Source: Myxococcales bacterium
GTDB lineage: Bacteria > Myxococcota_A > Polyangia > GCA-2747355
Assembly (NCBI GenBank): GCA_020431405.1
Contig: JAGQIK010000352.1
Location: forward strand, 5,316-69,315
Length of the DNA stretch: 64,000 nt
Direction of reading: 5' to 3'
Positions 5,012 to 30,050 of the stretch are shown here, piece by piece (the stretch's first letter is position 1; the number at the start of each line of letters is the position of its first letter). The translations under genes were made by a program, and so were the position numbers. The notes beneath the pieces are model-generated. The model was given only the letters and a program-made list of their open reading frames with translations. It ran no database searches and was not told the origin of the DNA.

Positions 5012-5056
5012 CGCGCGCGTCAGTGCCTCGCGATGCCGCGGCGGGGCCGGGGCTCC

Positions 5057-15753: not shown

Positions 15754-15772
15754 CGCGTCACCGCTTCACGTT

Positions 15773-18007
15773 TCACCGTTTCGCGCCGGCGGTCTTGATC
15801 ACGACGAACCGCACGCGGCGGTTGGCCGCGCGGCCTGCGGCGCTCTTGTTGCTCTTGACCGGCTTGGTCGGACCGAAGCCGACGGCGACCAGCCGGTGCG
15901 CGGCGATGCCGTTCTTGACGAGCACGCGCTTGACCTGCTCGGCGCGCCGCTGCGAGAGGTCGACGTTGAGCTCCTTGTCGCCTTGCGAGTCGGTGTGCCC
16001 CTCGATGCGCAGCTTGCGCACCTGCCAGTTGGCCTTGAGCACGCGTGCGACCTGACTGAGCAGGCTCATCGAGCGCGGCGAGATCGTGTCACGCCCGCTG
16101 GCGAAGTAGACCTTCTCGCTGATCGAGACCTCGCCCTTGACGAGCTTGGCCTTGCCCACGCCCTCGTCGGGGCAGCCGTCGTCATCCTTGATGCCGTTGA
16201 CCGTCTCGGGCTGCAGCGGACACTTGTCCACCGCGTCGGGGATGCCGTCGTGGTCGTTGTCCGGATCAGGACAGCCGTCTTTGTCTTGGAAGCCATCGTG
16301 ATCCTCGGGCTCGTAGGGGCACTTGTCCTGCGGGTTGGGCACGCCGTCGACATCGGGGTCGAGGTCGCCGCGGCTCGCTGCTGCGATGCTGTCCGGCGCG
16401 GCCGGCTTGGCGTAGCGATAGCGCTGGCGCGGGCGCTGCGGGGGCGCCTTGCCCTCGCGCACCAGCTTGGCGTAGGCCTTGGCGGCCTTCTCATTGTAGC
16501 GGATCAAGACCTGCGTGCGACCGAGCTTGCCGCCGAGCCAGTAGACGTGGCAGGCGAGCATCGAGGCGGCGGCTTGCGGCGGCGCGTGCAGCGTGGCGCG
16601 GTAGGTGCCGGCCCCGAGCGCCTTGATCGGCAGCGCGCCGTCGCCGCAGTTGACGGTCAAGCCCGGCACGAACGTCGCCTTGCCGTTGTCGAGGCTCGCG
16701 ACCACGGTGACGTAGGTCTTGCCGCCGCCGTCGATGACGCGGTCGCGGATCGCGAAGCTGGCCTTGATGCCGATCACGTGCAGCGTGACGAACTTCGCCG
16801 GGAAGCCCTGACCCATCACGCCGACGCGCACGCGCCCGCGGCCTTTGACCAGCACCGGCTTGGCGCTGAAGGTCGAGCCCACCGAGACGGTGAAGCCGTC
16901 GGCGGCGATCCAGGCGGCGCCGACCACCTGGATGCGGCCGCGCTTGTCGCGCAGCAGGCGCCGGCTGCTGCGCAGCGTGACCACGCGCAGCATCAGCGAT
17001 TGCGACGAGCGGCTCGAAAGACCGCTGTCGTCGACGGCCTGTACGCGCGCCCAGTAGGTGCCCGGCTTGAGCCGCTCGGCACGAAAGCGCTTGATGCCAG
17101 CGCCCATGGTGACCTCGGCGAGGGGCGCGCGAAGCTGCTTGTTGTTGGCGAGCACGAAGTGGTAGCGCTTCGCACCCGACACCGCGCCCCAGCTCGCCTC
17201 GAAGCGCGCCAGCTCGCCGGGCAGCACCACTTTCATCGCCCGCGTGCCACCGGCCCAGCGCGGCGCGCCGAGCAGGCGACGGGGCTTGGGTGGGCGCTGG
17301 CCGCGCGCCACGGTGACGCCGTGGTTGGTCGGCACCTTCACCGTGCGACCGCGCGCGGCGACCATCGCGTAGCCGTCGAACACCGAGATCGACGAGCGCT
17401 TGCGCTTGTCGACCGCGATCTGCGTGTCGCGCGAGCGCAGCTCGACGGTGGCCGCGGGTGTCTTGACCGTCAGCTTGGCGCGCTTGTCGAGCGCGGCCAG
17501 GCCGCCGCGCACGACACCCTGCTCGAGGCGCACCTCGCGCTGTTTGGAGACGCGCAGGTGGCTGCGCCGCGCGCTGCCGAAGATCACGAGCAGCGCGCGC
17601 TCGCGCAGGCGCAGCTTGGAGCGATCGATGAACGCGATCTCGGCCGAGGCACCATTGCCGGTGTTGACCTTGTAGAGGCGCCACAGCGATTGGTTGCGGC
17701 GCGCGCGCTGCCAGTACGGCGCGCGCGGCCCCTTGGCTTTGACGTTGTTGTGCAGCCACGCCACCTTGCCGGGCGCTGGCGCGGCGTCGAGCAGCAGCTG
17801 GGTGCCTGGCTGGAGCAGGTGCGGCGGCGGTCCGAGCTTGTTGTGCTTGTGGATGACGGTGTAGCGCTTGCCCTCGCCGATGAAACGCTCGGCGATGTTC
17901 CAACACGTGTCTCCGCGCTGGACGATGTACTTCTGCAGCTTGCGGGCGTGGGCGCTCGTGCTCGTCAGCACGGCCATCAGCAGTGTAAGTGCTCGAATCA
18001 GCGGCAT
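15773..18007 (-). CDS. LysM / FecR-like / thrombospondin type-3 repeat / OmpA-domain outer-membrane protein
   Basis: Signal peptide; LysM block YIVQRGDTCWNIAERF; TSP3 Asp-rich repeats DKDGCPDPDNDHDGIPDAVDKCP; C-terminal OmpA/MotB peptidoglycan-binding block (LRIEGHTDSQGDKELNVDLSQRRAEQVKRVL...NRRVRFVV). Confidence 0.8.
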   Translation of the reverse strand: MPLIRALTLLMAVLTSTSAHARKLQKYIVQRGDTCWNIAERFIGEGKRYTVIHKHNKLGPPPHLLQPGTQLLLDAAPAPGKVAWLHNNVKAKGPRAPYWQRARRNQSLWRLYKVNTGNGASAEIAFIDRSKLRLRERALLVIFGSARRSHLRVSKQREVRLEQGVVRGGLAALDKRAKLTVKTPAATVELRSRDTQIAVDKRKRSSISVFDGYAMVAARGRTVKVPTNHGVTVARGQRPPKPRRLLGAPRWAGGTRAMKVVLPGELARFEASWGAVSGAKRYHFVLANNKQLRAPLAEVTMGAGIKRFRAERLKPGTYWARVQAVDDSGLSSRSSQSLMLRVVTLRSSRRLLRDKRGRIQVVGAAWIAADGFTVSVGSTFSAKPVLVKGRGRVRVGVMGQGFPAKFVTLHVIGIKASFAIRDRVIDGGGKTYVTVVASLDNGKATFVPGLTVNCGDGALPIKALGAGTYRATLHAPPQAAASMLACHVYWLGGKLGRTQVLIRYNEKAAKAYAKLVREGKAPPQRPRQRYRYAKPAAPDSIAAASRGDLDPDVDGVPNPQDKCPYEPEDHDGFQDKDGCPDPDNDHDGIPDAVDKCPLQPETVNGIKDDDGCPDEGVGKAKLVKGEVSISEKVYFASGRDTISPRSMSLLSQVARVLKANWQVRKLRIEGHTDSQGDKELNVDLSQRRAEQVKRVLVKNGIAAHRLVAVGFGPTKPVKSNKSAAGRAANRRVRFVVIKTAGAKR

Positions 18008-18087
18008 CAGGTGCTCCGCTGAGCACTATCTCGCGGGCGGGGTATCTCTGGCAACGACGCGCTGAACTGCCGTGCCGCGCCCGGCAG

Positions 18088-19380
18088 CTAGCAGCTGCCG
18101 TCGGTCAGGCAGCGGCGCATCACGCCGGCGGGATCGCCGCCGACGATGATCAGCCCGTTGCCGCCCACAACGCGCACGCTGTTGTAGAAGCCCTTGTCGG
18201 GCGGCGTGCGTTTCCAGACCTCCTTGAGGTCGCTCATGGTCAGCTTGACGATCACCGGCTGGACCTTGGACATGTCGTCGGTCCAGCCCTGTCCGCCCAC
18301 CGCGTAGATATGCGTGCCGTCGGTGGCGATGCCAACAAAGCCGTCCTTGGTGCCCGGCTGATCGAGCACGTAGGAGGTCGCCTTTGCCGTGCGCAGATCG
18401 ATGCGCACCACCACGCCGCGCAGGTCGTTGGGGTCTTCGTAGGAAAAGCCTGCGACGTAGGCGTCGTTGCCCACCACCAGCATGCCGCGCACCTCCGTGT
18501 TGCGCGAGACGCCGTTCTCGGCGTCGGTGAAGATCACGCTGTTGTCGCGCTCGAAGTCGCAGGGCGGCGCGTCGCAGCGCGCGGCGCTGTCGAAGGTCAC
18601 GGCGAAGGCCTCGTGCAGCGTGGCGGGGGCGGGCGCGGGGATGCGACCGCCGACATACATTTTGCCGTTGGCGGCAAACAGCCGCCGGCCCGCGCCGCCG
18701 AACGGCGAGAAGCCGCACGGTGGGCCGCAGGTCGCTTGCGTGGTGGGCAGCTTGACGATCCAGGTGTTGGGACCGTTGGCGTTGCCCGTGACCCACAGCG
18801 AGCCGTCGAGCGCTTCGATATCCCAGACCTCGTCGGCGCCGCTGCTGCCCGTCAGTCGCGTGGTCCAGTCGACGGCGAGCGTCGAGGGGTCGACCTGCGC
18901 CACGAAGCCGTCGCGCGGGTCGCCGCCCTCGCGCGGCACCATGTTGCCGGCGACGTAGAGCTTGCCGCCGCTGGCGGTGATGCCCGTGCCGACGGCCGAC
19001 GTGGCGCCCGGTACCTCGAAGTCGCGGCTCGCGCGCAGCGTGCCGCACGGATCGATAGCGGCGACCGACGCGCGCGCGCCGACCTTCGAGGCGACGAAGA
19101 TCGTGCCGCTGCTGTCGATGTGCAGGTCCTTGACCGATGCTGCGAGCGAAAGACGCCAGGTGGTCGGACAGCCGCTGGCAGGCGTCGCGTCTGCGCCGGC
19201 GCCGCTGTCGGCCGAGGCGCCCGAGTCGAAGCTTGGCGTGCCCATGTCGGCGCTCGACGCGCGCGAGTCCGCCCCGCTCGCGCTCGGGTCACCGCCGAGA
19301 GACGGTTCGAGGCCACCTGCGCAAGCCACGAGGTTTAGAACCAGCCAACATGCCGACGTGATGGCCTGGACGTGGGTCAT
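18088..19380 (-). CDS. lipoprotein, probable beta-propeller-like repeat protein
   Basis: GAAGGGGGG RBS before ATG 19378-19380; lipobox LVLNLVACAGG; Ser/Asp-rich linker then repeated ..LYVAG../..MYVGG../..AYVAG../..IYAVGG.. strands. Confidence 0.55.
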   Translation of the reverse strand: MTHVQAITSACWLVLNLVACAGGLEPSLGGDPSASGADSRASSADMGTPSFDSGASADSGAGADATPASGCPTTWRLSLAASVKDLHIDSSGTIFVASKVGARASVAAIDPCGTLRASRDFEVPGATSAVGTGITASGGKLYVAGNMVPREGGDPRDGFVAQVDPSTLAVDWTTRLTGSSGADEVWDIEALDGSLWVTGNANGPNTWIVKLPTTQATCGPPCGFSPFGGAGRRLFAANGKMYVGGRIPAPAPATLHEAFAVTFDSAARCDAPPCDFERDNSVIFTDAENGVSRNTEVRGMLVVGNDAYVAGFSYEDPNDLRGVVVRIDLRTAKATSYVLDQPGTKDGFVGIATDGTHIYAVGGQGWTDDMSKVQPVIVKLTMSDLKEVWKRTPPDKGFYNSVRVVGGNGLIIVGGDPAGVMRRCLTDGSC

Positions 19381-19571
19381 GTGCCGCCCCCCTTCGGTTG
19401 TGCTCGATCGCGGTGCGATGTGTAGAGCAGGGACCGTGCCGGCGCCGAGGAGGCGGCATTTCGGCGGCTTGGCGGGGCGGCAGGTGGCGAAACGAGGGGC
19501 GTGCAGACCGCAGCGTTACGTCGAGGTGGCAGCGGTGGCTAGGGTGCGCCGCGTGCTGCGCCAGAGCCGCG

Positions 19572-20546
19572 CTAGCCGAGCGGGGACTGTCCGGCCACGA
19601 CCAGAATCCAGCGCAGCGCGAGGCCGCCGACGAGCAGCAGCACGGGCGCGACGAGCGCGGCCCTGCGCCGGCGCAGCACCTCGATGCTCTCCAGCGCCAG
19701 CGGCACCACCAGGCCGGCGACGACGACCAGCGCCCAGAAGATCGCCGTGAAGCGGCCGCCAAGAAACAGCGCCGCAGCGCGCTGGCCAGCCTGCGCGCCG
19801 CTGACCAGCCCGACGAAAAGCAGCGCCAGCAGCGCCAGCTCGACGCCGATCGCGATCATGTCCCAGTTGCGCAGCAGCGCGTGCTCGCGATGGGTCAGTG
19901 GCAGCAGCATCGTCAGCGCCGCGCCGGTAGAGAAGCCGGAGACGAGAAAAAGGGGGCCCAGCAGCGACGAGCTCCACAGCGCGCGCGCCCCGAGGGCGCC
20001 GAGCAGCACGCCGGTGTAGGCGCCGAGCGCGACGCCAAGCGCGATGTTGGCCCACGTCAACGTGCGCTGGCGCTGCTGGGCCCAGCTGTGTAGGCCTTCG
20101 AGGATGCGGCGCAGCGCGCCGATACGCAGCTTCGCTGCGAGCCAATCACGCTCGCTCTCGGTCGTCTGTGACAGCCCGAAGAGCAGCGTGGCCGGGTAGA
20201 TCGCCAGCAGGATCCAGGCGCCCCACGACATCGGCGAGCTCAGCTGAAACGTCGTGTAGAAGCGCAGCACGTGGCGCTTGAGGTCGAGGTCGAGCAGCAG
20301 CGCGAACATGCCGAGCCACAGCGCGGCCGGCGCGGCGAGGATCATCAGCCGTCCCCAGGGCGAGCGCTGCGACGTCTCACTCGCGTCGGCGCCGCCGTCG
20401 GCGAAGCGGCGCGCCAGCAGCGCCGAGACGATCATCACGCCCGCGGCGAGGCCGCCGAGAAACAGATAGACGGGGATCTCCCAGTGCCACACGGGCTGGC
20501 CCAGCGCGCTCAGTGGGTTGTGATGCACGCGTACGATCTCGTTCAT
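19572..20546 (-). CDS. NrfD/PsrC-family polysulfide-reductase-type integral membrane anchor
   Basis: MNEIVRVHHNPLSALGQPVWHWEIPVYLFLGGLAAG typical NrfD/PsrC N-terminus; about 8 predicted TM segments; last gene of the arsR-psrAB-yeeE-psrC operon. Confidence 0.7.
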   Translation of the reverse strand: MNEIVRVHHNPLSALGQPVWHWEIPVYLFLGGLAAGVMIVSALLARRFADGGADASETSQRSPWGRLMILAAPAALWLGMFALLLDLDLKRHVLRFYTTFQLSSPMSWGAWILLAIYPATLLFGLSQTTESERDWLAAKLRIGALRRILEGLHSWAQQRQRTLTWANIALGVALGAYTGVLLGALGARALWSSSLLGPLFLVSGFSTGAALTMLLPLTHREHALLRNWDMIAIGVELALLALLFVGLVSGAQAGQRAAALFLGGRFTAIFWALVVVAGLVVPLALESIEVLRRRRAALVAPVLLLVGGLALRWILVVAGQSPLG

Positions 20547-20547
20547 G

Positions 20548-21765
20548 TCAGCACCCTCCGCCCTTCTTCTTTTTGCGCTTGGGCGCGTAGCCTTTGATGC
20601 TCGCCGGCGGCGGCGGCGCGGCCTTGCGGCCTGTCATCGCCGCCACCAGCGCGCTGCGAAAAGTCCACTCCGCGCGCGCCGCGGCGTCTGCGCCGGCAGC
20701 CAGCGCGGCCGGTTTGGTCAGCGCGTAGGCCTTCCAGCCGGCAAACCCGCCGCGCAGGCGCAGCACCTTTCCCGGATAGCGCGTCACTGCCGGCGGCAGC
20801 ACGGCCAGATCGCCGGCGCCGACGAGCACCAGATCGCGCTTGCCGGCGGCGTAGGCCAAGCCCAGCGCGCCGAGCTTCGTCTCGGGCACGCACTCGGCGC
20901 CCGGCACGCGGCGTTTGGCGCACGCCGCGGCGTCGCGCAGGTCGAGCACGCGCAGCGTCCACGGCCGGTCGAGCACGCGGCGCGCCAGCTCGGCTTGCGT
21001 GATGCTGCCGAGCCTGGCCGGCGCGGCCTTGGGGCGCTCCGGGGCGGCGAGCGCGACGAGCCCGAGCACGGCGAAGCCGCCGATGCCGCCGAAGATCAGT
21101 CGCCGCGGCCGAGGCGCCCAGTCGACCTCGAGCGCACGGCTCTGGCCGTCGTCGACGACGCCGCCTTCGCGCCGCCGCCGCGCGAGCACGTGCTCGAGCT
21201 TCTCGGCGCCGATGAACATGCCCACCGCCATCAACGCCACCAGCAGCGCCAGCACCGGCGCCGGGATCGAAAACACGTCGTAGAGGAAGAGGTGCCCCAG
21301 CTCGCTCGACTTGTAGAAGTCGCCCACCAGCGGCCACGCCTCGGCGAAGAGCACCGAGCCGATCACCACGCCGCCGATGGTGAACATGCCGTCGATGCTG
21401 CCCGACGCGGCGGCCACCACCGAGGTGCCCGGGCAGTAGCCCGAGATGATGAAGCCCACACCGAGCAGAAAGCCGCCCAGCGCCATCGGCCAGAGCCAAG
21501 TGAAGCTCGCCGTCTGCTCGGCGAGCGGCCTGAGGTCGATCACGCCGGCGCCGTGCGCGATCATCACGCCCAGCATCGCCGTCACGATCGCCGAGAACAT
21601 CACCTTGAAGACGCGCATGTCGGAGCCGTAGAACTGCGCCGCCAGCTTGTCGGCACGGCCGAAGCCCGCGCGCTCGAGCACGAAGCCGAAGCCAAAGCCG
21701 AGCAGCAGCGCCACCAGCAGGCCGAGCTCGCGATGCTCGGCGAGAAACGTTGCTATCGCGCTCAT
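20548..21765 (-). CDS. YeeE/YedE-family sulfur-transport membrane protein (second half-transporter) fused to C-terminal rhodanese-like domain
   Basis: ATG 21763-21765 overlaps upstream TGA (ATGA); ISGYCPGTS motif (YeeE/YedE signature Cys loop); C-terminal LRVLDLRD...DLVLVGAGD...LRGGFAGWK rhodanese-fold pattern lacking the catalytic Cys; 62 upstream codons of the track ORF rejected. Confidence 0.65.
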   Translation of the reverse strand: MSAIATFLAEHRELGLLVALLLGFGFGFVLERAGFGRADKLAAQFYGSDMRVFKVMFSAIVTAMLGVMIAHGAGVIDLRPLAEQTASFTWLWPMALGGFLLGVGFIISGYCPGTSVVAAASGSIDGMFTIGGVVIGSVLFAEAWPLVGDFYKSSELGHLFLYDVFSIPAPVLALLVALMAVGMFIGAEKLEHVLARRRREGGVVDDGQSRALEVDWAPRPRRLIFGGIGGFAVLGLVALAAPERPKAAPARLGSITQAELARRVLDRPWTLRVLDLRDAAACAKRRVPGAECVPETKLGALGLAYAAGKRDLVLVGAGDLAVLPPAVTRYPGKVLRLRGGFAGWKAYALTKPAALAAGADAAARAEWTFRSALVAAMTGRKAAPPPPASIKGYAPKRKKKKGGGC

Positions 21766-22298
21766 CGCCACTGCCTCCTGACGAAGTACGCCATGGCGTA
21801 GCCGCCGGCGAAGACCGCCAGCATGAAGACCCACGAGCCGGCCGACAGCATCGCGCCGCCCGAAAGGGCCTGCCCCGACGTGCAGCCGCGCGCCAGACGC
21901 GCAGCGATGCCCATCACGATGCCGCCGCCCAGCGCCGCAGCGAGCCGCCACGGCACGGAGATGTTCGGCCCACGGACGATCTTCTTCTTCAGCCGTCCCG
22001 CGCTGTAGGCGGCGACGAGGGCGCCGAGCAGCACGCCGAGCACCTCGAAGACGAGCCAGTTGTCGAGCGGGTGGTGCCCGCCCGCCGAGAGCGTCGCCAT
22101 GTGCGGGTTGCTCGCGACGTGCGCCGGCGCCAGCGCCGACAGCGCCGTCACGCCCACGCGGTTGGCCGCGCCCGACGCGCCCAGCCCGTGCGCCGCGACG
22201 AGCAGGGAGGCGAGCAGCACCAGCCCCAGCGCGACGCCGGCGACGTACGGGTTCCAGAAGCGTTCGGCGCGAGCGGTTGTTTCAGCTTGCTCTGGCAT
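21762..22298 (-). CDS. YeeE/YedE-family sulfur-transport membrane protein (first half-transporter)
   Basis: AGGAGGAAAG RBS 8 nt upstream of ATG 22296-22298; ARGCTSG signature Cys loop; 4-5 TM segments. Confidence 0.7.
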   Translation of the reverse strand: MPEQAETTARAERFWNPYVAGVALGLVLLASLLVAAHGLGASGAANRVGVTALSALAPAHVASNPHMATLSAGGHHPLDNWLVFEVLGVLLGALVAAYSAGRLKKKIVRGPNISVPWRLAAALGGGIVMGIAARLARGCTSGQALSGGAMLSAGSWVFMLAVFAGGYAMAYFVRRQWR

Positions 22299-22311
22299 CA
22301 CCGCTTTCCTC

Positions 22312-22872
22312 CTAGGACAAGAAGAACAGGTGCGGCTCGGTGCCCTGCTCCGGTTTGAGGGTTTCGTGCTGGCGGCGCGCCAGCAGCTTGGCCAGCGAGC
22401 TCTCGGGGTCGCCGAGATCGCCGAAGACGAGAGACTCCGTCGGGCAAACCTCGACGCACGCCGGGTCTTTGCCCTTGGCCACGCGATGCATACAGAAGGT
22501 GCACTTGTCGACGTAGCCTTCGGGCCGCACGAAGCGCGCGCCGTAGGGACACGCCGCGATGCACGCCTTGCAGCCGGTGCACTTGTCGGGGTCGACCTGC
22601 ACCGCGCCGCCTTCGCTGTAGAAGCTGGCGCCCGTCGGGCAGTTGCTCACGCACGGCGCGTCGGCGCAGTGCATGCAGCGCGACGAGACGATGCGCTGCT
22701 TGAGGTCGGGGAAGGCGCCGCGGATCTCGATCTCGACCCAGCAGCGGAAGCCGCCCTCGGGCACGTCGTTTTCGGCTTTGCAGGCGAGCACGCACGCGTT
22801 GCAGCCAACACACTTGCGCATATCCATCGCCATCGCGTAGCGCTTCTTGCGTTTGCGGAGGATGGCGCTCAT
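22312..22872 (-). CDS. 4Fe-4S ferredoxin-type electron-transfer subunit (PsrB/PhsB/DmsB family)
   Basis: Four Cys clusters (CVGCNACVLAC, CMHCADAPCVSNCP, CTGCKACIAACP, CTFCMHRVAKG..CVEVCP); ATGA overlap with catalytic-subunit stop. Confidence 0.85.
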   Translation of the reverse strand: MSAILRKRKKRYAMAMDMRKCVGCNACVLACKAENDVPEGGFRCWVEIEIRGAFPDLKQRIVSSRCMHCADAPCVSNCPTGASFYSEGGAVQVDPDKCTGCKACIAACPYGARFVRPEGYVDKCTFCMHRVAKGKDPACVEVCPTESLVFGDLGDPESSLAKLLARRQHETLKPEQGTEPHLFFLS

Positions 22873-25106
22873 GACCGCACCTCCGCCTTGGCGATGCGAA
22901 CGAAGTTGACGTTCATCCCGGTGCCGCCCATCAACGGGTCGACCTTGACGCGCGTCACCAGGTCGCTGTCGCAGGCGCCGCGCCCGCGCGCGAAGCGCAG
23001 GCCGCGCGCGCTATGGCCAAAGCCGTGCACCATGTAGACGCAGTCGCCGCGTATTCGCTCGGTGACGCGCGCCTTGATCGGCGTCGACTTGATGCCGTCC
23101 TGATTGACGAGCACGACTTTGTCGCCCGTGCGCAGCGGCGGGTCTTCGAACCCTGGCAGCGCGCGCGCCGCGGCGCGGTTGATCCAGACCTCGTTCTCGC
23201 TCATCAGCTCGCCGAGCTGACGGTTGTTCGTCGTGCGGCCGAAGGTGTGCATCGGCGCGCGCCCGGTGAGCAGGCGGAACATCCCTTGCGGCGGCTCTTC
23301 GGGTGACGAGGGCTCGGGCATCGGGTGGAAGCCGAGCTTGGCGAGCTGGTCGCTATAGAGCTCGACCTTCTTGCTCGGCGTGTCGAAGCTCGGCGCCGGC
23401 AGGCCGTCATCACGACACGCCGGCACGCGCTTGCCGAGCACCACGCCGTCGCGCGCCAGCGCGGCGAAGTCGATCTTGGCCGCGGCGGCGCGCCGGCGCA
23501 CCACGTCCTCGCTGCTCTGGTAGTTGAACTGCGCGCCGAGCCCGAGGCGCTCGCCGAGCTGCTTGGCGATCCACCAGCCAGGCTTGCTTTCGTACATCGG
23601 CGGCACCACCTGCTGGCGCAGCGCGACGTAGGGCTCCTTGTAGGCCGGCACGTGCAGGTCGTCGGTGCGCTCGAGGTAGGTCGCCTCGGGCAGCACCACA
23701 TCAGCCCAGCCGACGATCTCGGCCGGCAGCACGTCGATGGCGACGAGCAGGTCGAGCTTCTCGATCGCCGCGCGCGTGTGGCGCGGATCGGGCAGCGCCT
23801 GCATCAGGTTGGTGCCGTAGACCATCCAGCCTTTGATCGGATAGGGCTTCGCCGTGACCGTCGCGTCGCACAGCCCGGAGGCGAGCGCCGCGCCGGCGAG
23901 CGGATGTTTGCCCGGCAGGCGGTCGGCGCGCGGGCGATGCGGCTTGCGCGCGGACTTGGGGTACTTGTCGCCCGGCACCTCCATCGACGTGGGCAGCAAG
24001 TAGCCGCCGCGGCGACCCCACGAGCCGAGCAGCGCCGAGAGGATCGCGACCGCGCGGCTTCTCTGCGCGTCGTCGCCGTACCAGGTGGCGCGCCGTCCGG
24101 GATGCACCAGCGAGGCCGGCCGCTGCGAGGCGATGAAGCGCCCCGACTCGCGGATTAGCTGCGGCGCGATGCCGGTGAGCGGGTAGGCCCACTCGGGCGT
24201 CTTGTCTGCGACGTGCGCTTTGAGCTTGTCGAAGCCGACCGTGTGCTTGGCGACGAAGTCAGCGTCGTAGCGCTGCTCGCTGATGATGACGTTCATCCAG
24301 GCGAGCAGCAGCGCGATGTCGGTGCCCGGTTTGATCGGCAGCCAGTACTTGGCCTTGCCCGCGGCGATGGAAAAGCGCGGGTCGACCACCACCAGATCGG
24401 CGCCGCGCTCGATGGCGCGCGCCATGTCCTGCACCTGGGTGTTGTGCGTGTTCTCGCCGAGGTGCGAGCCGATCAGCGTCAGGCAGCGCGTGTTCTCGAT
24501 GTCCACGGGCTCGGGCGAGCCGACGCCTTGGCCGTAGGTCAGCTCGAAGCCGACCTCGCGCGGACCGCGACACTGCGCGTAGGACGGCGCCGCGATGTTG
24601 GGCGAGCCGAAGCTCTTGAAGAGCCGCTTGAACCACGAGCCGCCGAAGCCGTGATAGAAGAGCGCCAGCGCCTCGGGGCCGTGTGCCTTGCGGATGCGCT
24701 CCATGCCTTCGGCGACGCGGTTGAGCGCGGCGTCCCAGGAGACCGGCTCGAAGCGTTGCTCGCCGCGTTTCGAGACGCGCACCAGCGGCTTCTGCAGTCG
24801 GTCGGGATCGTAGAGCAGGCCCGTGCCGCCGGTGCCGCGCGGACACAGACGCCCGCGCGAGAGCGGATGCTTGGGGTTGCCGACGATCTTGGTCACGCGA
24901 CCGTTCTTGACGTGCGCCAGGACGCCGCACTTCCAGAAGCAGAGCTCGCAGAAGGTCGGCACGACGTTGTCGCCGTCTGTGTCGGGTGTGATCCCCGCGC
25001 TCGCCGTCGCGCCCCACCAATCCGAGACGAGACCGCTCGCCAGAGCGGCCGCGCCAAAGCTACCCGCGGTGATCTTGATGAACTGCCTGCGATCGATGGA
25101 GGACAT
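22869..25106 (-). CDS. molybdopterin (Mo-bisPGD) oxidoreductase catalytic subunit, PsrA/PhsA/TtrA/ArrA clade, Tat-exported
   Basis: Tat signal SIDRRQFIKITAGSFGAAALASG; N-terminal FeS motif CELCFWKCGV...(27)..CPRG; 745 aa; followed by FeS and NrfD subunits. Confidence 0.85.
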   Translation of the reverse strand: MSSIDRRQFIKITAGSFGAAALASGLVSDWWGATASAGITPDTDGDNVVPTFCELCFWKCGVLAHVKNGRVTKIVGNPKHPLSRGRLCPRGTGGTGLLYDPDRLQKPLVRVSKRGEQRFEPVSWDAALNRVAEGMERIRKAHGPEALALFYHGFGGSWFKRLFKSFGSPNIAAPSYAQCRGPREVGFELTYGQGVGSPEPVDIENTRCLTLIGSHLGENTHNTQVQDMARAIERGADLVVVDPRFSIAAGKAKYWLPIKPGTDIALLLAWMNVIISEQRYDADFVAKHTVGFDKLKAHVADKTPEWAYPLTGIAPQLIRESGRFIASQRPASLVHPGRRATWYGDDAQRSRAVAILSALLGSWGRRGGYLLPTSMEVPGDKYPKSARKPHRPRADRLPGKHPLAGAALASGLCDATVTAKPYPIKGWMVYGTNLMQALPDPRHTRAAIEKLDLLVAIDVLPAEIVGWADVVLPEATYLERTDDLHVPAYKEPYVALRQQVVPPMYESKPGWWIAKQLGERLGLGAQFNYQSSEDVVRRRAAAAKIDFAALARDGVVLGKRVPACRDDGLPAPSFDTPSKKVELYSDQLAKLGFHPMPEPSSPEEPPQGMFRLLTGRAPMHTFGRTTNNRQLGELMSENEVWINRAAARALPGFEDPPLRTGDKVVLVNQDGIKSTPIKARVTERIRGDCVYMVHGFGHSARGLRFARGRGACDSDLVTRVKVDPLMGGTGMNVNFVRIAKAEVRS

Positions 25107-25133
25107 ATCTAGAACCTTTCGGGAGTGCGCGCG

Positions 25134-25499
25134 CTAGAGGCGGCAGCCGGCCATGCACCCGACGAGCTCGATCAATCGAGGCTCGTCGATGCGGTACAGC
25201 CCGCGGCCGCCTGTGCGGTCGACGGCGACCAGTCGCTGGGTGCGCAACACGCGTAGCTGCTGCGAGACGATCGCCTGGTTGGCGTCGAGCGCTTCGGCCA
25301 GCGCGTTGACGTGTCGCGGCGCCTGCGCGAGCAGGGCGACGATGCTGATGCGCAGCGGGTGCGCGAGCGCCTTGAGGATCTCGGCGACATGCTCGGCGCG
25401 CGCGCGATCGTCTGCGATCGATGGGTGGGGAGGGTCCGACGACGACGGGGTTTCCGAGGCGGATGTGACGTCGGTGTGAATAACTCGCGATGTAGCCAT
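25134..25499 (-). CDS. ArsR/SmtB-family HTH transcriptional regulator with C-terminal CxxxC
   Basis: GAAGGGA RBS before ATG 25497-25499; HTH block ILKALAHPLRISIVALL...LAEALDANQAIVSQQLRVL; C-terminal GCMAGC Cys pair; 27 bp upstream of psrA-like gene on same strand. Confidence 0.75.
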   Translation of the reverse strand: MATSRVIHTDVTSASETPSSSDPPHPSIADDRARAEHVAEILKALAHPLRISIVALLAQAPRHVNALAEALDANQAIVSQQLRVLRTQRLVAVDRTGGRGLYRIDEPRLIELVGCMAGCRL

Positions 25500-25718
25500 A
25501 ACGCTATATCCCTTCGTCGCGATAAGGCTAGGCAGGGACTGTGCCACTCTGCGAGTGCGAGTAATTTCAGCTATATGGCGGACAGATTGGGATGACAGGC
25601 CGCAGAAGGTGGATCGCTGCGTCCCGACTGGACTGTCAGCTTGGCAGGCTGCGGGTCAGATCGGCGCGATTTCGGCGCGGGGGCGGGAGAGGGTGTGCCA
25701 GCCCAGGGCTGACGGACG

Positions 25719-26636
25719 CTACTCGGCGTTGATGCCGGTCTTGAGGATCTGCCAGCGCATGCCGAGCGCCTGGCTGTTCTGCGGCGACTTGTCGCCGCTG
25801 CGGATCTTGCGGTAGTCCACCGGCGCGACGGCGGTGGTGACGCCGCCGAGGAAGCTGTGATCGGCGATCAGCGAGCCCGGCTGAATCGCCGTGTGCACGT
25901 TCTCGGTCTTGTTCGCCACGGGGTAGTCGGTGGCGCTGGCGATGTCGACGTTGCCGTAGACGATCTCGATCTTGCTGTCCTGCAGCGTCGAGCCGATCTT
26001 GATGCCCGAGATGGGCTCGGTGTGTCCGTACTTCACGCCGCTGCCGTCGCGCGGGATGTGCACCTTCATGCGCGCGTCGCCAGGGCTGAGCTTGAGCAGG
26101 TCTTGCGGCGAGCGCACGTTCTTGACGAGCAGCGCGGGCGACATGTTGTCGATGACGTGCAGGGCGCCGGTCTTCTGGCGCAGAAAACGGATGAACTCTT
26201 CAGGCGAGCGGAAGTCGGCGCTGTCGATCCAGCGCGCGCGCCAACGCGAGCGACCGTCCTCGGTGACGCGCACGTAGACCTTGAAGGGGACGCGCAGGCC
26301 TTGGTTCTTGGCGAAGGTGTGCAGGTTGATCAACGCGAGGTCGGCGCAGTCGGCGACGAGCCCGTCGCGCACGGCGCCCTTGAGGAAGCGCGCCGAGTGC
26401 TCGGCGAACGCTTGCTGCACGAGCTTGACCTTGGCCTTGTCGTTGAACCAGTTGGCGCCACCCGTGGTGAGCGCCCACGGGTGCGACTGCTGCACCTGGC
26501 GGATGCGCTGCGTGCGGCTCAGCTCTTGTGACGTATAGGCCTTCTTGCCGGCGAAGTCTCCGGCGTGGGCGGTGCTCGCCAGCGTGGAGGCGGCGAGGAT
26601 GGCGGTGAGGATGGATATTCTTCGTCGTGATCTCAT
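25719..26636 (-). CDS. secreted hypothetical protein
   Basis: Signal peptide MRSRRRISILTAILAASTLASTAHA; no recognised motif. Confidence 0.55.
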   Translation of the reverse strand: MRSRRRISILTAILAASTLASTAHAGDFAGKKAYTSQELSRTQRIRQVQQSHPWALTTGGANWFNDKAKVKLVQQAFAEHSARFLKGAVRDGLVADCADLALINLHTFAKNQGLRVPFKVYVRVTEDGRSRWRARWIDSADFRSPEEFIRFLRQKTGALHVIDNMSPALLVKNVRSPQDLLKLSPGDARMKVHIPRDGSGVKYGHTEPISGIKIGSTLQDSKIEIVYGNVDIASATDYPVANKTENVHTAIQPGSLIADHSFLGGVTTAVAPVDYRKIRSGDKSPQNSQALGMRWQILKTGINAE

Positions 26637-26791
26637 CGTTGGTTCCCGGCTTGGTGGCGAGCCATGCGGGTTGCAACGGGTGTGCCGCGGCGCGAGTCAC
26701 TGTGGTTTCGGCGCCCTAGGGCGGTCGTCGGGTTGCCCGGAAGCAACTATGGCCAGTGGTTTGTCTAGATTCCGAGGCGGCGTTCGGCCGC

Positions 26792-27877
26792 TCAGGGTGC
26801 GCTGATCGCGCCGTTAGCGGCGATTCGCGGGGCGCGCGCGCCGAAGTCGAGGCGCGATAGGCGGCGCAGCGTGCGCAGCACACGGGCGCTGCGATCGAGG
26901 CGCGGCCCGCCCGGCACGCGCTGACGCACCGGCCGCACGCGCCCGCGCACGAAGCGGCCGTCCTTGCCGAGCGCGACCTCGAGGATCATCGTCCGTCCCA
27001 GCACGCCGCGCACGTTGATGCCGCCGTAGCTGGCGAACGTGCCCAGCGAGTAGGCCACCAGCCGCCCCTTGTAGATCTCGAGGCCGCGCAGCACGTGCGG
27101 CCCGTGGCCGACGACGAGGTCGGCGCCGGCGTCGATCACGGCGTGCGCGAAGGCGCGCACTGCGCCCCGCGACTCGCCGAAGAAGATCTCTTCGCGTCGG
27201 GGCACGCGCTGCGCACGGCGACCTTCGGCGCCGCCGTGAAACGAGACCATCACCAAGTCGGCCTCGCGCGCGGCTTTGCCGATCAGCGCGCGCGCGGCGT
27301 CGAGGTCGCGCAGATCGTTGAGGCCCTTGTAGGTGGCGAAGGCGATCACGGCGAGGCGCACGCCGCGCACCGTCACGTGTGCGACGCTGCCGGTGGGGCC
27401 GCTGTAGCGGACGCCGAGCGCGTGCAGCGTCTTGATGGTGGCGTGGCGGCCGGCGAGGCCGAAGTCGTCGATGTGGTTGTTGGCGAGGCTGAGCACGTCG
27501 AAGCCCGCGGCGGCGAGCAGCTTGCCGTAGCGCGCCGGCATGCGAAACGCCCAGCACGTCTTGCCGCCAGGGCGGCCGTGGTTGCGCTCGAGAATGCCGC
27601 CCGGCGTGCAGCGCGGCTGTTGGCCGCCGTCGAAGAGCGGACCTTCGAGGTTGCCGAACGCGACGTCGGCGGCGCGCAGGATGGGCGCCACTGCTGCGAG
27701 CAGGCGCCGCCCGTCGCGCGGCGGCAGGCGCGCGCGCGGAAAGGTCGAGCCGAGCATCAGATCGCCGACGGCGGCGATGACGAGCGGCCTCTGCTGCTCA
27801 GCAGGCGCGGCGCGCGTGCTCGTGGCGCACGGCGCGAGTGCCGCGACGACGACGATGACGATGACGCGCACGCGCAC
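26792..27877 (-). CDS. CapA-family (poly-gamma-glutamate synthesis-type metallophosphatase) secreted protein
   Basis: GTG start; signal; CapA blocks AAVGDLMLG, GNLEGP, SLANNHIDDFG, VVGHGPHV; 8 nt after upstream lipoprotein stop. Confidence 0.7.
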   Translation of the reverse strand: MRVRVIVIVVVAALAPCATSTRAAPAEQQRPLVIAAVGDLMLGSTFPRARLPPRDGRRLLAAVAPILRAADVAFGNLEGPLFDGGQQPRCTPGGILERNHGRPGGKTCWAFRMPARYGKLLAAAGFDVLSLANNHIDDFGLAGRHATIKTLHALGVRYSGPTGSVAHVTVRGVRLAVIAFATYKGLNDLRDLDAARALIGKAAREADLVMVSFHGGAEGRRAQRVPRREEIFFGESRGAVRAFAHAVIDAGADLVVGHGPHVLRGLEIYKGRLVAYSLGTFASYGGINVRGVLGRTMILEVALGKDGRFVRGRVRPVRQRVPGGPRLDRSARVLRTLRRLSRLDFGARAPRIAANGAISAP

Positions 27878-27885
27878 GCGCGCGA

Positions 27886-28356
27886 CTAGCGCATCTGACG
27901 CGCGTGCAGGACCTTGCCGCCGCTCTCGGTGCTGACGTGACCGGTAAAGCGTGTCGCCGAGTCCGCGATCAGCTTCGCGTCGCGCACGACGCGCACCGTG
28001 CCGTGCACGATGCAGTTGCTGAGCACGACCCTGGCGTCACGCTCGGCGTACAAGCCGCCGCGCACTTCGCAGTTGCTGAGCACGAGCTTGCAGTCGGACT
28101 TGGCCACCACCGCGCCGTACACGACGATGTGGCTGTGAGCCATCTTCTGATCGTCGTCGCAGATCAGGTTCGGTACCATCGCGCGTCCGCTGACGCTCGG
28201 CGCGCCCGGCGGCGGCGCTGGCGCGTTGGGCGGCGGCGCGGGCTGCTCCTGCGCGGCGCGCTGGTTTTCGGGCGGTGGCCCGTAGCCGCCGTAGTATGGC
28301 GAGCAGGCGGCGACGGAGAGCACGAGCAACGCGGCGGCGGCGAGCGTGATCTTCAT
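27886..28356 (-). CDS. lipoprotein, hypothetical
   Basis: AGGA RBS before ATG 28354-28356 giving MKITLAAAALLVLSVAACS lipobox; Pro-rich linker; 30 upstream codons in track rejected. Confidence 0.5.
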   Translation of the reverse strand: MKITLAAAALLVLSVAACSPYYGGYGPPPENQRAAQEQPAPPPNAPAPPPGAPSVSGRAMVPNLICDDDQKMAHSHIVVYGAVVAKSDCKLVLSNCEVRGGLYAERDARVVLSNCIVHGTVRVVRDAKLIADSATRFTGHVSTESGGKVLHARQMR

Positions 28357-28393
28357 GGGCTGAATCCTAGCAGCGTCGCACGCGCGCAGCCCG

Positions 28394-29605
28394 CTAAAGA
28401 CCCGTCGATCGCACCGGGTACTTCTTCGCTGTGCGCCAGGGCACACCCTTGGGCCACCAGCGTGCGATCGGCGGCGGCGACGACGGCTCCACGCTCTCGC
28501 CCGCGCGCGGCGTGACCAGCGTGACGGCTGCGCGCTTGGCCGCGGCGATGGTGCGCTCGATGGGCTCGACCCAGCTGTGCAGCGCGAGGTTGAACGTGCC
28601 CCAGTGCACGGGCAGCAGCACGTGGCCGCGCACGTCGCGATGCGCTTGCACGGCCTGCTCGGGGCCGAGGTGCACGTCGGGCCAGAGCTGATCGTAAGCG
28701 CCGACCTCGATCATCGTGATGTCGAAGGGGCCGAGGCGGCGCCCGATCTCGCTGAAGCGCTTGAACATCGCCGTGTCGCCGCTGTAGTACGCACGGTGCT
28801 TGGGGCCGAGCATCGCCCAGCCCGACCACAGGGTCTTGTCCTTGTCGGTGAGCCAGCGGCCAGAGAAGTGGCGCGCCGGCGTCGAGACGAGCGTGATGCC
28901 TTTGACCTTCGTGCGCTGCCACCAGTCGAGCTCGGTGATGCGCTCCGCGGCGATGTCCCAGTAGCGCAGGTGCGAGCCGACACCCAGCGGCACGATGAAG
29001 CGCAGCCCTTTGCGTTTGGCGAGCTCGATGATGGTCGGATGGTCGAGGTGGTCGTAGTGATCGTGCGAGATGACCACGGCGTCGACGCGCTCGAGCTTCG
29101 CCAGCGCGATCGGCGGCTGGTGAAAGCGCTGGGGCCCAAGCCAAGTGAACGGAGAGGTGCGCTTGCCCCACACCGGATCGAGCAGCAGGCGCACCCCGTC
29201 GATCTCGACAAACAGCGTCGAGTGGCCGAACCAGCTCACGCGAAGCCCACTGGGCGGCGCGCTGGCGAAGTCGGCGCGCGCGCGTTTTCGGACCGGCGGC
29301 GGTTGCTCGGGCTCACCGTGCTCGACGCCGGTGACCCAGCGCTTGAGCATCGTCCAGTAGCTGCCGCGCACCTCGGGCAGCGCGTTGAAGAAGCGCCCCT
29401 CGCGAAAGTGCTTCGAGCGCGAGATGCGCGTCAGGTGTTGGCCGTGCGGCGCTTTGCCGGCGGGCACGCGCGCGTCGATGGCGAGCGCGCCGAGCAGCAC
29501 CACGATCGCGCCGAAGAGGTAGCCCACGCGCCGCAGCCAGCGGCGCGCCCGCGAACGCTTGGCACTGCGCGTACCGGCACTGCGCGTACCGTCACTGCGC
29601 GTCAT
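28394..29605 (-). CDS. MBL-fold metallo-hydrolase (NAPE-PLD-like) with N-terminal membrane anchor
   Basis: ISHDHYDHLD zinc-binding motif; TM segment VGYLFGAIVVLLGALAI; N-terminal TRSDGTRSAGTRSA encoded by a 15-nt tandem repeat. Confidence 0.75.
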   Translation of the reverse strand: MTRSDGTRSAGTRSAKRSRARRWLRRVGYLFGAIVVLLGALAIDARVPAGKAPHGQHLTRISRSKHFREGRFFNALPEVRGSYWTMLKRWVTGVEHGEPEQPPPVRKRARADFASAPPSGLRVSWFGHSTLFVEIDGVRLLLDPVWGKRTSPFTWLGPQRFHQPPIALAKLERVDAVVISHDHYDHLDHPTIIELAKRKGLRFIVPLGVGSHLRYWDIAAERITELDWWQRTKVKGITLVSTPARHFSGRWLTDKDKTLWSGWAMLGPKHRAYYSGDTAMFKRFSEIGRRLGPFDITMIEVGAYDQLWPDVHLGPEQAVQAHRDVRGHVLLPVHWGTFNLALHSWVEPIERTIAAAKRAAVTLVTPRAGESVEPSSPPPIARWWPKGVPWRTAKKYPVRSTGL

Positions 29606-29621
29606 GCGCGGGAGATGCTCA

Positions 29622-30050
29622 CTAAGGGCAGGTCCCCTGAGCGCCGTTGCCGGCGATACACGCTAGCCCGCTCGGGCAGCCCGCGTTCTCGCAGCAGTAC
29701 ACAGGCGGCGTCGCCGGTGTGCACACGCTGTTGATGCAGTCGGAGCCCTGCGTGCAGCCGCAGGCGTTGATACAGGTGGTGAGCGCGAGGTCGCGTGTCG
29801 TGTCGGGAGCGCTGACCCCGTCCACCGTCGCATCGACGACCGCTGTGTCGGTGGCTGCGTCAACGGTTACGCCGTCGCCTACGCCCATGTCGCTCGAAGA
29901 GTCGACGTCCGAGTCAACGTTCTTGCCGGGCTTCGTGGAGGGCAAGTTGCCGAGCGATCCAGGGATGCGCGGCGGGGAGCTCGAGTTGCTGCAGGCCGCG
30001 ATCGCCAGGCCGATCAAGGCCAGCGCGACAAAGGAGGTAAGCGTACGCAT
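29622..30050 (-). CDS. small Cys-rich lipoprotein
   Basis: Lipobox ALIGLAIAACSNSS; Asp/Val-rich linker; C-terminal 10-Cys module CINACGCTQGSDCINSVCTP...CCENAGCPSGLACIAG. Confidence 0.55.
   Translation of the reverse strand: MRTLTSFVALALIGLAIAACSNSSSPPRIPGSLGNLPSTKPGKNVDSDVDSSSDMGVGDGVTVDAATDTAVVDATVDGVSAPDTTRDLALTTCINACGCTQGSDCINSVCTPATPPVYCCENAGCPSGLACIAGNGAQGTCP

Follow-up and report, generated by a model that had tools for sequence, protein, structure and literature searches.

Psr/Phs-type enzymes serve as metagenome markers of sulfur and thiosulfate respiration, and only with Wolinella Sud is it understood how insoluble or scarce sulfane sulfur gets to the active site. The question of delivery is raised again by a six-gene locus at positions 19572-25499 of a 64,000-nucleotide stretch of DNA from a Myxococcales bacterium (assembly GCA_020431405.1, contig JAGQIK010000352.1; G+C content about 70%), referred to below, at its full length, as the window. 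Two halves of a YeeE-type sulfur channel are encoded there between the subunit genes of a periplasmic molybdenum reductase. What are they doing in that place? The six genes are a genuine conserved operon. The second channel half continues into a rhodanese-fold domain without catalytic cysteine and ends in a flexible tail with an invariant cysteine at its tip. The cysteine-tipped tail is probably a tethered sulfur carrier, serving both the enzyme and the channel.

The genes, and the parts of the fusion protein, are as follows (aa, amino acids; TM, transmembrane).

25134..25499, minus strand: ArsR/SmtB-family regulator, 121 aa from ATG 25499, alternative GTG start at 25547 (Pfam HTH_5, 1.8e-10).
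22869..25106, minus strand: PsrA, catalytic subunit with Mo-bis(pyranopterin guanine dinucleotide) (Mo-bisPGD), exported by twin-arginine translocation (Tat), 745 aa (Pfam, match to 2vpw_A, NCBIfam, neighbour-joining tree).
22312..22872, minus strand: PsrB, four-[4Fe-4S] ferredoxin subunit, 186 aa (Pfam Fer4_11, 1.2e-22; four Cys groups, 16 Cys).
21762..22298, minus strand: YeeE1, YeeE/YedE protein of half size, 178 aa, matching the C-terminal half of YeeE by homology (PmpA/YedE1-like; Pfam, alignment to 6leo_A).
21166..21765, minus strand: residues 1-200 of the 405-aa fusion protein, its YeeE2 part, matching the N-terminal half of YeeE by homology (PmpB/YedE2-like), with an H7-like helix added (Pfam, AlphaFold 2 model).
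21046..21105, minus strand: extra TM helix of the fusion protein, residues 221-240, following an Arg-rich linker predicted to be cytoplasmic and returning the chain to the periplasm (AlphaFold 2 model, hydropathy).
20722..21015, minus strand: rhodanese-fold domain of the fusion protein, residues 251-348, predicted periplasmic, without catalytic Cys (AlphaFold 2 model, Foldseek, profile).
20551..20631, minus strand: putative C-terminal swinging arm of the fusion protein, residues 379-405, Pro-rich linker and then KRKKKKGGGC-COOH (conservation, model confidence).
19572..20546, minus strand: PsrC, NrfD-type quinol-oxidising membrane anchor, 324 aa, without Cys (Pfam NrfD, 1.5e-42; eight TM segments by hydropathy).

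The operon and its distribution

The open reading frames are all on the minus strand, in the order arsR, psrA, psrB, YeeE half (YeeE1), YeeE half fused to a rhodanese-like domain (YeeE2::Rhd), psrC. A gap of 27 bp separates the arsR stop (25134) from the psrA ATG (25106). The psrA/psrB junction is an ATGA overlap. The psrB stop (22312) and the YeeE1 ATG (22298) are 13 bp apart, and an AGGAGG ribosome-binding site lies in this gap. YeeE1 and YeeE2 again overlap by ATGA, and 1 bp stands between the YeeE2 stop TGA and the psrC ATG. An earlier note on this DNA had described the same five junctions, and all are read in the sequence. It had likewise placed the YeeE genes on the common transcript; a scan of the psrB/yeeE junction found no promoter-like or terminator-like site there. 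Terminator-like matches lie inside psrC or on the opposite strand, at about the frequency seen in shuffled sequence. An Rfam scan of positions 19000-26500 gives zero matches and so no molybdenum cofactor riboswitch.

The 405-aa fusion protein is 100% identical to one annotated from a Myxococcales metagenome-assembled genome. Its relatives were sought across GTDB, each species represented by one genome. The scan found 520, and the best 80 of these 520 loci were retrieved and searched by tblastn with the six window proteins; counts of 80 below refer to this set. PsrA (59-73% identical), PsrB, YeeE1, YeeE2::Rhd and PsrC are present in every locus of the 80 with a long enough contig. The window gene order is shared by the majority; a minority (Holophagales and a few others) has the order PsrA-PsrB-PsrC-YeeE1-YeeE2::Rhd. 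The hosts are Myxococcota, Bdellovibrionota, Acidobacteriota (Thermoanaerobaculia, Holophagales) and Latescibacterota, and include the cultured Anaeromyxobacter oryzae Red232, Anaeromyxobacter soli SG29 and Anaeromyxobacter terrae SG22. Chance adjacency is ruled out: 80/80 related loci share the module, which goes far past coincidence. A synteny search for further psrB-yeeE-psrC arrangements had been proposed beforehand, and this recurrence is its outcome. The same note held a psr operon with embedded YeeE genes to be unusual. That stands with respect to the closest characterised relatives, of the Thermus type, which have no YeeE; rarity does not, as the module occurs in 80/80 loci of 520 relatives and in at least four phyla.

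The module is self-contained, because the flanks are unrelated to it in the window and in the Bdellovibrionales metagenome-assembled genome (MAG) locus L084, and because the only recurrent neighbours over the 80 loci are ArsR (35 loci, immediately upstream) and a PAS/sigma-54 activator (29 loci). The flanking genes of the window encode an OmpA/FecR/LysM protein, two unknown proteins, a PGA_cap protein and a protein of the metallo-beta-lactamase fold; in L084 the six genes are flanked by housekeeping genes. Neighbour clustering around the loci finds neither TusA, DsrE, persulfide dioxygenase (PDO) and sHdr genes nor ars and selenium-utilisation genes conserved nearby. Within the module there are no sox genes, no chaperone gene and no separate rhodanese genes.

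Three further observations belong to the loci themselves. Long antisense open reading frames run throughout 15737-29734 on both strands of the window, e.g. 20545-21801 (plus strand) and 22060-23037 (plus strand); they are an artefact of the 70% G+C content and not genes. Locus L071 has two consecutive PsrC-like genes (positions 4268-6028; 43% and 51% identical to window PsrC) after the YeeE::rhodanese gene. The MAGs of L027, L045 and L047, labelled 'uncultured Enterobacteriaceae', 'Rickettsiales' and 'Planctomycetaceae', carry Myxococcota-typical modules, and their labels look like binning or taxonomy artefacts.

The cysteine-tipped arm and the split channel

Pfam at E<=0.01 detects no rhodanese domain in the 405-aa protein. 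The fold is recovered by other means. An AlphaFold 2 model (mean predicted local distance difference test score, pLDDT, 81.8) gives the order YeeE half, H7-like helix, Arg-rich linker, one more TM helix, rhodanese fold, helix, disordered tail, with pLDDT >90 for residues 251-348. In Foldseek the domain matches many single-domain rhodaneses with probability 1.0 and a target-length TM-score of 0.55-0.69, and the family profile matches the rhodanese 1yt8 among Protein Data Bank (PDB) sequences at E 1.5e-11. The canonical catalytic position is Cys in 0/80 loci; G, A, D, T, S, H, N or V stands there instead. The rhodanese fold without catalytic Cys had been recognised in the earlier note, which overlooked the invariant C-terminal (K/R)n-GGC arm.

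Across 34 aligned homologues (50-61% identical) the final GGC of the arm never varies, and a Pro-rich linker and a Lys/Arg cluster lie ahead of it. The terminal Cys is kept in 80/80 loci, where tails read (K/R)n-GGC plus 0-2 residues; the tail is exactly GGCGG, the SoxY carrier-arm motif, in 14/80. Divergent family members of about 30% identity retain the GGC ending. Model confidence falls from pLDDT 73 to 50 across the last three 10-residue blocks (residues 381-405). The last 161 residues of the fusion protein, searched against 1.84 billion representative proteins, match 107 clusters only, and always at the extreme C-terminus. Judged by these alignments, the terminal Cys is the defining residue of a narrow protein family, and it is likely the active residue of the Cys-less rhodanese domain. 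Two other explanations of the tail and its module were considered. A C-terminal sorting signal of the GlyGly-CTERM or MYXO-CTERM type is rejected: no hydrophobic stretch follows the Cys, and the chain ends 0-2 residues on. A generic rhodanese is rejected as well, given only 107 clusters, all extreme C-terminal.

Two further cysteines of the domain, C282 and C292, are each present in 65/80 loci. In the 12 Cys-less loci resolved pairwise by regular expression, both are replaced jointly by the canonical F/Y...N/S/T. Such joint replacement is the pattern expected of a structural disulfide, and C282/C292 are probably such a pair.

The domain is predicted to be periplasmic, exported by the sixth helix, and the Arg-rich linker to be cytoplasmic. 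In Spirochaeta thermophila YeeE (StYeeE) the N-terminus is outside, the N-terminal half begins and ends outside, and H7 brings the chain back to the cytoplasm (PMC7449682). Hydropathy of the fusion protein gives 6 TM segments, with 13 versus 3 K+R in alternate loops. The prediction rests on this N-out topology and charge distribution, on the putative disulfide pair, on the Tat export of PsrA and on the signal peptide of an unfused paralogue described below.

The channel itself is split. YeeE1 matches positions 170-309 of the Pfam Sulf_transp profile and aligns to residues 237-327 of StYeeE (6leo_A); YeeE2 matches profile positions 3-182. Two half-size proteins with their signature loops had been reported correctly and labelled the wrong way round: by profile, the first gene encodes the C-half and the second the N-half. 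In the 6leo_A alignment Cys139 of YeeE1 (ARGCTSG loop) lies opposite StYeeE C293, at the periplasmic mouth, and it is kept in 80/80 loci. Cys111 of YeeE2 (GYCPGTS loop) is kept in 80/80 loci too. It is equated with StYeeE C91 because PMC11582611 puts the single Cys of PmpB at that position; compared directly, 6leo aligns only weakly (E 0.38). The split PmpAB / YedE1E2 arrangement has been described (PMC11582611, PMC10812762), and by homology the window pair is assigned to this type, each half with one invariant Cys. Joined to a channel of this kind, with its two invariant Cys, the arm would be able to feed a Cys relay into the cytoplasm.

Related reductases indicate where the arm may have come from. 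The Thermus PsrA query was rebuilt from the PDB alignment (2vpw_A) and used to collect its clade, and a neighbour-joining tree with bootstrap was made of YeeE-linked and Thermus-type PsrAs. The YeeE-linked PsrAs (60-70% identical to the window protein) stand apart from the Thermus type (45-49%) at bootstrap 100/100. The sister clade has the arrangement PsrA-PsrB-anchor-rhodanese, without YeeE, in 5/5 contexts (Thermus, Trueperaceae, two Chloroflexota-type contigs and one further contig). The rhodanese downstream in Thermus combines a signal peptide with the canonical loop IIIYCGIGHRG, and a Chloroflexota protein has four canonical YCASGHR loops. Because all five contexts carry a periplasmic rhodanese, the rhodanese partner is, on gene context, ancestral to this PsrA lineage. 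The window clade appears to have swapped a soluble, Cys-active rhodanese for a Cys-less one that is tethered, fused to a YeeE half and ends in a Cys arm.

The same accessory proteins occur with another enzyme. A second, paralogous cluster adjoins the main one in Anaeromyxobacter oryzae Red232 (L029, 92-5670) and in L012 (13303-18905). Its PsrA' is 46-47% identical, its PsrB' is fused to a cytochrome b561 anchor (Phs-like), and its YeeE1' and YeeE2' have no extra domain. A separate, secreted, Cys-less rhodanese ends in KKKI(S/G)GGCG and has a signal-peptide-like N-terminus in Anaeromyxobacter oryzae. The trio of two channel halves and armed rhodanese, fused or unfused, thus stands beside two different reductase types, which ties it to the type of reductase and not to a single operon.

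Reductase, direction of sulfur flow and regulation

PsrA has the Pfam domains Molybdop_Fe4S4, Molybdopterin and Molydop_binding. Its translation shows the Tat motif DRRQFIK and the N-terminal FS0 Cys motif CX2CX3C..C. It matches Thermus PsrA (2vpw_A) over residues 5-742 with 707 bits (phmmer, E 2e-211), and the positions aligned to Thermus H145, C173 and R332 are all conserved. In the Thermus enzyme C173 is the Mo-ligand Cys, with H145 and R332 the neighbouring His and Arg. Pfam and motifs agree with the previous identification of a Tat-exported Mo-bisPGD subunit, a four-cluster ferredoxin, two YeeE halves and an NrfD anchor. As a separate observation, Thermus PsrA has an insertion of ~20-25 residues at ~371-401 of 2vpw_A with a Gly-flanked Cys (PAAGGCSGPSGG), and this insertion is missing from window PsrA.

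By architecture the enzyme is inferred to be of the Psr type. The best NCBIfam model for PsrA is PhsA, at 467.9 bits under a cut-off of 694, and the anchor is an NrfD protein, not a dihaem cytochrome b; PhsABC is therefore not assigned. A haem-less NrfD-family anchor with eight TM helices marks Psr as against Phs (PMC12949373), and the window anchor is of the NrfD family with eight hydrophobic segments. Polysulfide, thiosulfate, selenite or another chalcogen are its candidate substrates. PsrA, PhsA and SrrA are not phylogenetically separable (PMC12949373), and the substrate of such enzymes is not inferable from sequence (PMC13047784). For the same reason it cannot be fixed for the window enzyme, and both papers bear out the caution on specificity expressed before this analysis. 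The arsenate (ArrAB) alternative put forward with it is not supported by model scores: the ArrA equivalog model gives 126 bits against a cut-off of 1600 and the TtrA model 63 against 1750, both far short.

The selenite alternative is retained as improbable. It supposes a Srr-like reductase of selenite, or of another chalcogen or metalloid, whose arm Cys and YeeE/YedE pair handle selenium as R-S-Se- and whose ArsR senses the metalloid. In its favour are the mixing of PsrA, PhsA and SrrA in phylogeny and the rhodanese-domain genes of srr operons (PMC12949373, PMC12481199). The NCBIfam selenium YedE models match both YeeE halves, about as weakly as TsuA does. Some ArsR orthologues of the clade carry CCxxxC, and ArsR-family regulators with C-terminal Cys clusters, such as A. 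ferrooxidans ArsR, can bind As(III). Against it, the ArrA and TtrA scores lie far under their cut-offs and, of the named matches, PhsA and Thermus PsrA come out best; the known arms of GGCGG type belong to sulfur carriers; and the neighbourhoods hold no conserved ars or selenium-utilisation genes.

The reading preferred here, with a confidence a little below even, is that of a Psr-type, quinol-dependent periplasmic sulfane-sulfur reductase whose arm Cys feeds both PsrA and the YeeE Cys relay, with ArsR as the sensor. PsrABC would carry out a menaquinol-dependent, periplasm-facing reduction of polysulfide or of a protein-bound persulfide, possibly of thiosulfate. A delivery protein of the Sud type would have been rebuilt for it: the active-site Cys lost, the fold tethered by an extra helix, and the reactive Cys moved to a Pro/Lys-rich arm of ~25 residues. 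The arm Cys would take up periplasmic sulfane sulfur as a persulfide or polysulfide and present it to the molybdenum site of PsrA for reduction to sulfide; quinol would supply the electrons by way of PsrC and PsrB. The arm could also pass its sulfur to the Cys at the periplasmic mouth of YeeE1, and this in turn to Cys111 of YeeE2 and on to the cytoplasm. Sulfur arriving there would be sensed by the C-terminal CxxxC of ArsR, and the operon derepressed.

Of this reading, the gene content, conservation, folds, predicted topology and invariant Cys are observed here, and the substrate, the direction of catalysis, the docking of the arm to PsrA and to the channel, and the ligand of the regulator are proposed. 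Several points weigh against it. Polysulfide reduction with menaquinone is thermodynamically uphill, and the enzyme might instead operate as a sulfide dehydrogenase. The PsrA funnel of the Thermus structure is presumably positively charged, and a Lys-rich arm might be repelled by it. That the arm reaches PsrA or the channel is itself a proposal from sequence and model. Only about half of the loci have an adjoining ArsR, and the sensing step can therefore not be universal; the ArsR of the window lacks the alpha2 Cys of BigR/SqrR. The inseparability of PsrA, PhsA and SrrA (PMC12949373) also leaves polysulfide, thiosulfate, selenite and other chalcogens all as candidates.

The first of these points leads to an alternative judged unlikely, in which PsrABC runs as a periplasmic sulfide:menaquinone oxidoreductase and the arm Cys catches its zero-valent sulfur product, which then enters through the YeeE pair to be oxidised or assimilated in the cytoplasm. 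With menaquinone, oxidising sulfide is exergonic and reducing polysulfide is not. The arm is the sole periplasmic sulfur-handling gene product of the module, and a carrier arm on an importer is most sensible if the product of the enzyme is the species imported. The characterised members of the YeeE family all import: TsuA (PMC7449682), YedE1E2 (PMC10812762) and SoxT (PMC11582611). On the other side, no Psr-type enzyme has been demonstrated in the oxidative direction, the cytoplasmic sulfur genes TusA, DsrE, PDO and sHdr are not conserved near the loci, and the soluble Sud-like rhodaneses of the sister clade match the reductive Wolinella paradigm.

The carrier-arm idea also has a bolder form, held with clearly less confidence than the preferred reading, yet above the oxidative scheme. 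Here the arm would be a third kind of C-terminal Cys swinging-arm carrier after SoxY and DsrC, and the true substrate of PsrA would be a protein-tethered persulfide. Single S atoms would be shuttled between the Mo site and YeeE1 C139 and on to YeeE2 C111, coupling quinone-linked sulfur redox to transmembrane sulfur transfer in either direction.

The regulator and the DNA upstream of it bear on the sensing step. Two upstream features are added to the list given above.

25532..25546, minus strand: candidate sigma-54 promoter 33 nt before the arsR ATG, TGGCAC-N5-CTGC (pattern scan, single consensus match, weak).
25485..25522, no strand: imperfect inverted repeat with 16-nt arms, 75% complementary, with TCGCGA ends, across the arsR start (repeat search; speculative).

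The inverted repeat is a possible ArsR operator. The alternative arsR start GTG 25547 overlaps the sigma-54-type motif. Similar motifs, TGGCAC-N5-yTGC, stand 44-63 nt upstream of psrA in six arsR-less loci (L025, L030, L040, L065, L079, L080). In the window tblastn at E<1e-5 finds no homologue of the PAS/sigma-54 activator that recurs near other loci. The window ArsR scores 70.5 bits with HTH_metalloreg (cut-off 55) and 54.8 bits with BigR (cut-off 155). It has a single Cys pair, the C-terminal CxxxC (GCMAGC), and Ala at the alpha2 position. The C-terminal CxxxC is found in 33/35 psrA-adjacent ArsR orthologues, the BigR/SqrR-like alpha2 Cys in ~23/34 (about two-thirds). The BigR/SqrR-like label of the earlier note therefore applies loosely, through the conserved CxxxC; it fails on the BigR score and on the missing alpha2 Cys of the window protein. 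Two tandem arsR paralogues precede psrA in the Anaeromyxobacter-type loci L023, L029, L051, L069 and L076, and several of them have a C-terminal CCxxxC together with the alpha2 Cys.

In another alternative the coupling between channel and enzyme is loose: PsrABC would respire free polysulfide or thiosulfate alone, and the YeeE pair with its arm would serve inducer uptake and sensing for the cytoplasmic regulator, as in SoxT1B/SoxR. This is considered somewhat less probable than the oxidative scheme. It has a precedent, as the YeeE-like SoxT supplies sulfur to an ArsR-type repressor (PMC11582611); an ArsR with conserved CxxxC adjoins in 35 loci, and YedE1E2 lies beside ArsR genes elsewhere (PMC10812762). 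However, the YeeE pair and the arm are present in 80/80 loci and ArsR is adjacent in about half, and the YeeE genes are set between psrB and psrC, where neighbouring genes overlap or nearly abut. The soluble rhodanese of the relatives is lost from the clade, which suggests the arm protein as its replacement, and the same accessory set accompanies a second reductase type.

The reverse route, from the inside outwards, is the least probable of those weighed and is thought very unlikely. Excess cytoplasmic sulfane sulfur would leave through the YeeE pair onto the arm and be reduced by PsrA to H2S, an anaerobic stand-in for persulfide dioxygenase that is switched on by a persulfide-sensing ArsR. 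A cytoplasmic sensor would suit a cytoplasmic stressor, and ArsR proteins of the BigR/SqrR type typically govern sulfane-sulfur detoxification operons with YeeE-like proteins (PMC10812762). No exporting member of the YeeE family is known, cytoplasmic thiol reductants already reduce persulfides, and the soluble periplasmic rhodaneses of the relatives indicate an external substrate.

The reading of a reductase served by a carrier arm would have consequences beyond the window. At least 80 species genomes of Myxococcota, Acidobacteriota and Bdellovibrionota from soil, sediment and groundwater carry the module, and probably several hundred do. It suggests delivery of a different, hard-wired sort, a tethered Cys arm joining a reductase to a YeeE-type sulfur channel. 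If true, sulfur biochemistry gains a new carrier-arm system, YeeE/YedE half-proteins gain a defined partner and substrate, the reporting of a periplasmic enzyme to a cytoplasmic ArsR-type sensor is explained, and Anaeromyxobacter and its relatives are overlooked players in cryptic sulfur cycling. The cultured Anaeromyxobacter carriers make the arm model directly testable.

Comparison with known systems

Thermus thermophilus PsrABC (2vpw-2vpz) is like the window system in its Tat-exported Mo-bisPGD PsrA, four-cluster PsrB, haem-less NrfD-family anchor and operon-encoded rhodanese-fold partner. The Thermus operon differs in the TorD/NarJ-like chaperone and two-component regulator encoded upstream; the rhodanese there is soluble, with a canonical Cys, and YeeE is absent. 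The window clade has no chaperone gene, and its rhodanese is Cys-less, membrane-tethered, fused to a YeeE half and provided with a GGC arm.

Wolinella succinogenes PsrABC with Sud is likewise a Mo enzyme with a periplasmic rhodanese-fold protein that holds polysulfide sulfur on a Cys and passes it to the enzyme (by way of PMC6378623, PMC12949373). The single Cys of Sud is required for polysulfide-sulfur transfer, according to Klimmek 1999 as cited in PMC6378623. Unlike the window protein, Sud is a soluble dimer with a canonical loop Cys and no channel; the two are likened by description. The Bacillus selenitireducens SrrABCDEF operon shares the Psr-like ABC core and rhodanese-domain accessory proteins (PMC12481199, PMC12949373). 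As far as its operon description allows comparison, it has the chaperone SrrD and two large soluble rhodanese-domain proteins (srrE/srrF), with YeeE not reported, whereas the window module has neither a chaperone nor separate rhodanese genes.

YedE1E2 (Cupriavidus, Sinorhizobium) and PmpAB (Serratia) resemble the window channel in having two halves with one conserved Cys each, the C-half-like gene first and an adjoining ArsR-family gene (BigR/PigS-type). Uptake of zero-valent sulfur has been shown for YedE1E2, whose genes adjoin an ArsR gene (PMC10812762). Those proteins have ~130 aa and no extra domain, and are encoded beside PDO, rhodanese or sulfide:quinone oxidoreductase detoxification genes, not beside a respiratory Mo enzyme. 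The window halves are larger (178 and 405 aa), and one of them adds two helices, a periplasmic domain and an arm. Spirochaeta thermophila YeeE/TsuA (6leo) is of the same Sulf_transp family, with both essential Cys positions conserved. TsuA consists of one chain of ~340 aa and has a TusA-like partner in the cytoplasm (YeeD/TsuB); the window channel is split, has no TusA-like gene, and its Cys-bearing partner domain is placed in the periplasm.

SoxY of SoxYZ and, more loosely, DsrC also have a Gly-flanked Cys at the extreme C-terminus of a flexible peptide, a match at the level of the motif only. The SoxY Cys carries covalent sulfur intermediates into partner active sites (PMC6067878, PMC5336275). 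There is no kinship of sequence or fold with SoxY, and no SoxZ; the window arm comes after a rhodanese fold and a Lys/Arg cluster, is tethered to the membrane and accompanies a reductase, not Sox enzymes.

The combination, the fusion and the terminal-Cys rhodanese family were found undescribed in a search of the open-access literature. The components are each known: PsrABC with a rhodanese, a split YeeE with ArsR, GGCGG arms. What is new is the build of the rhodanese and its attachment.

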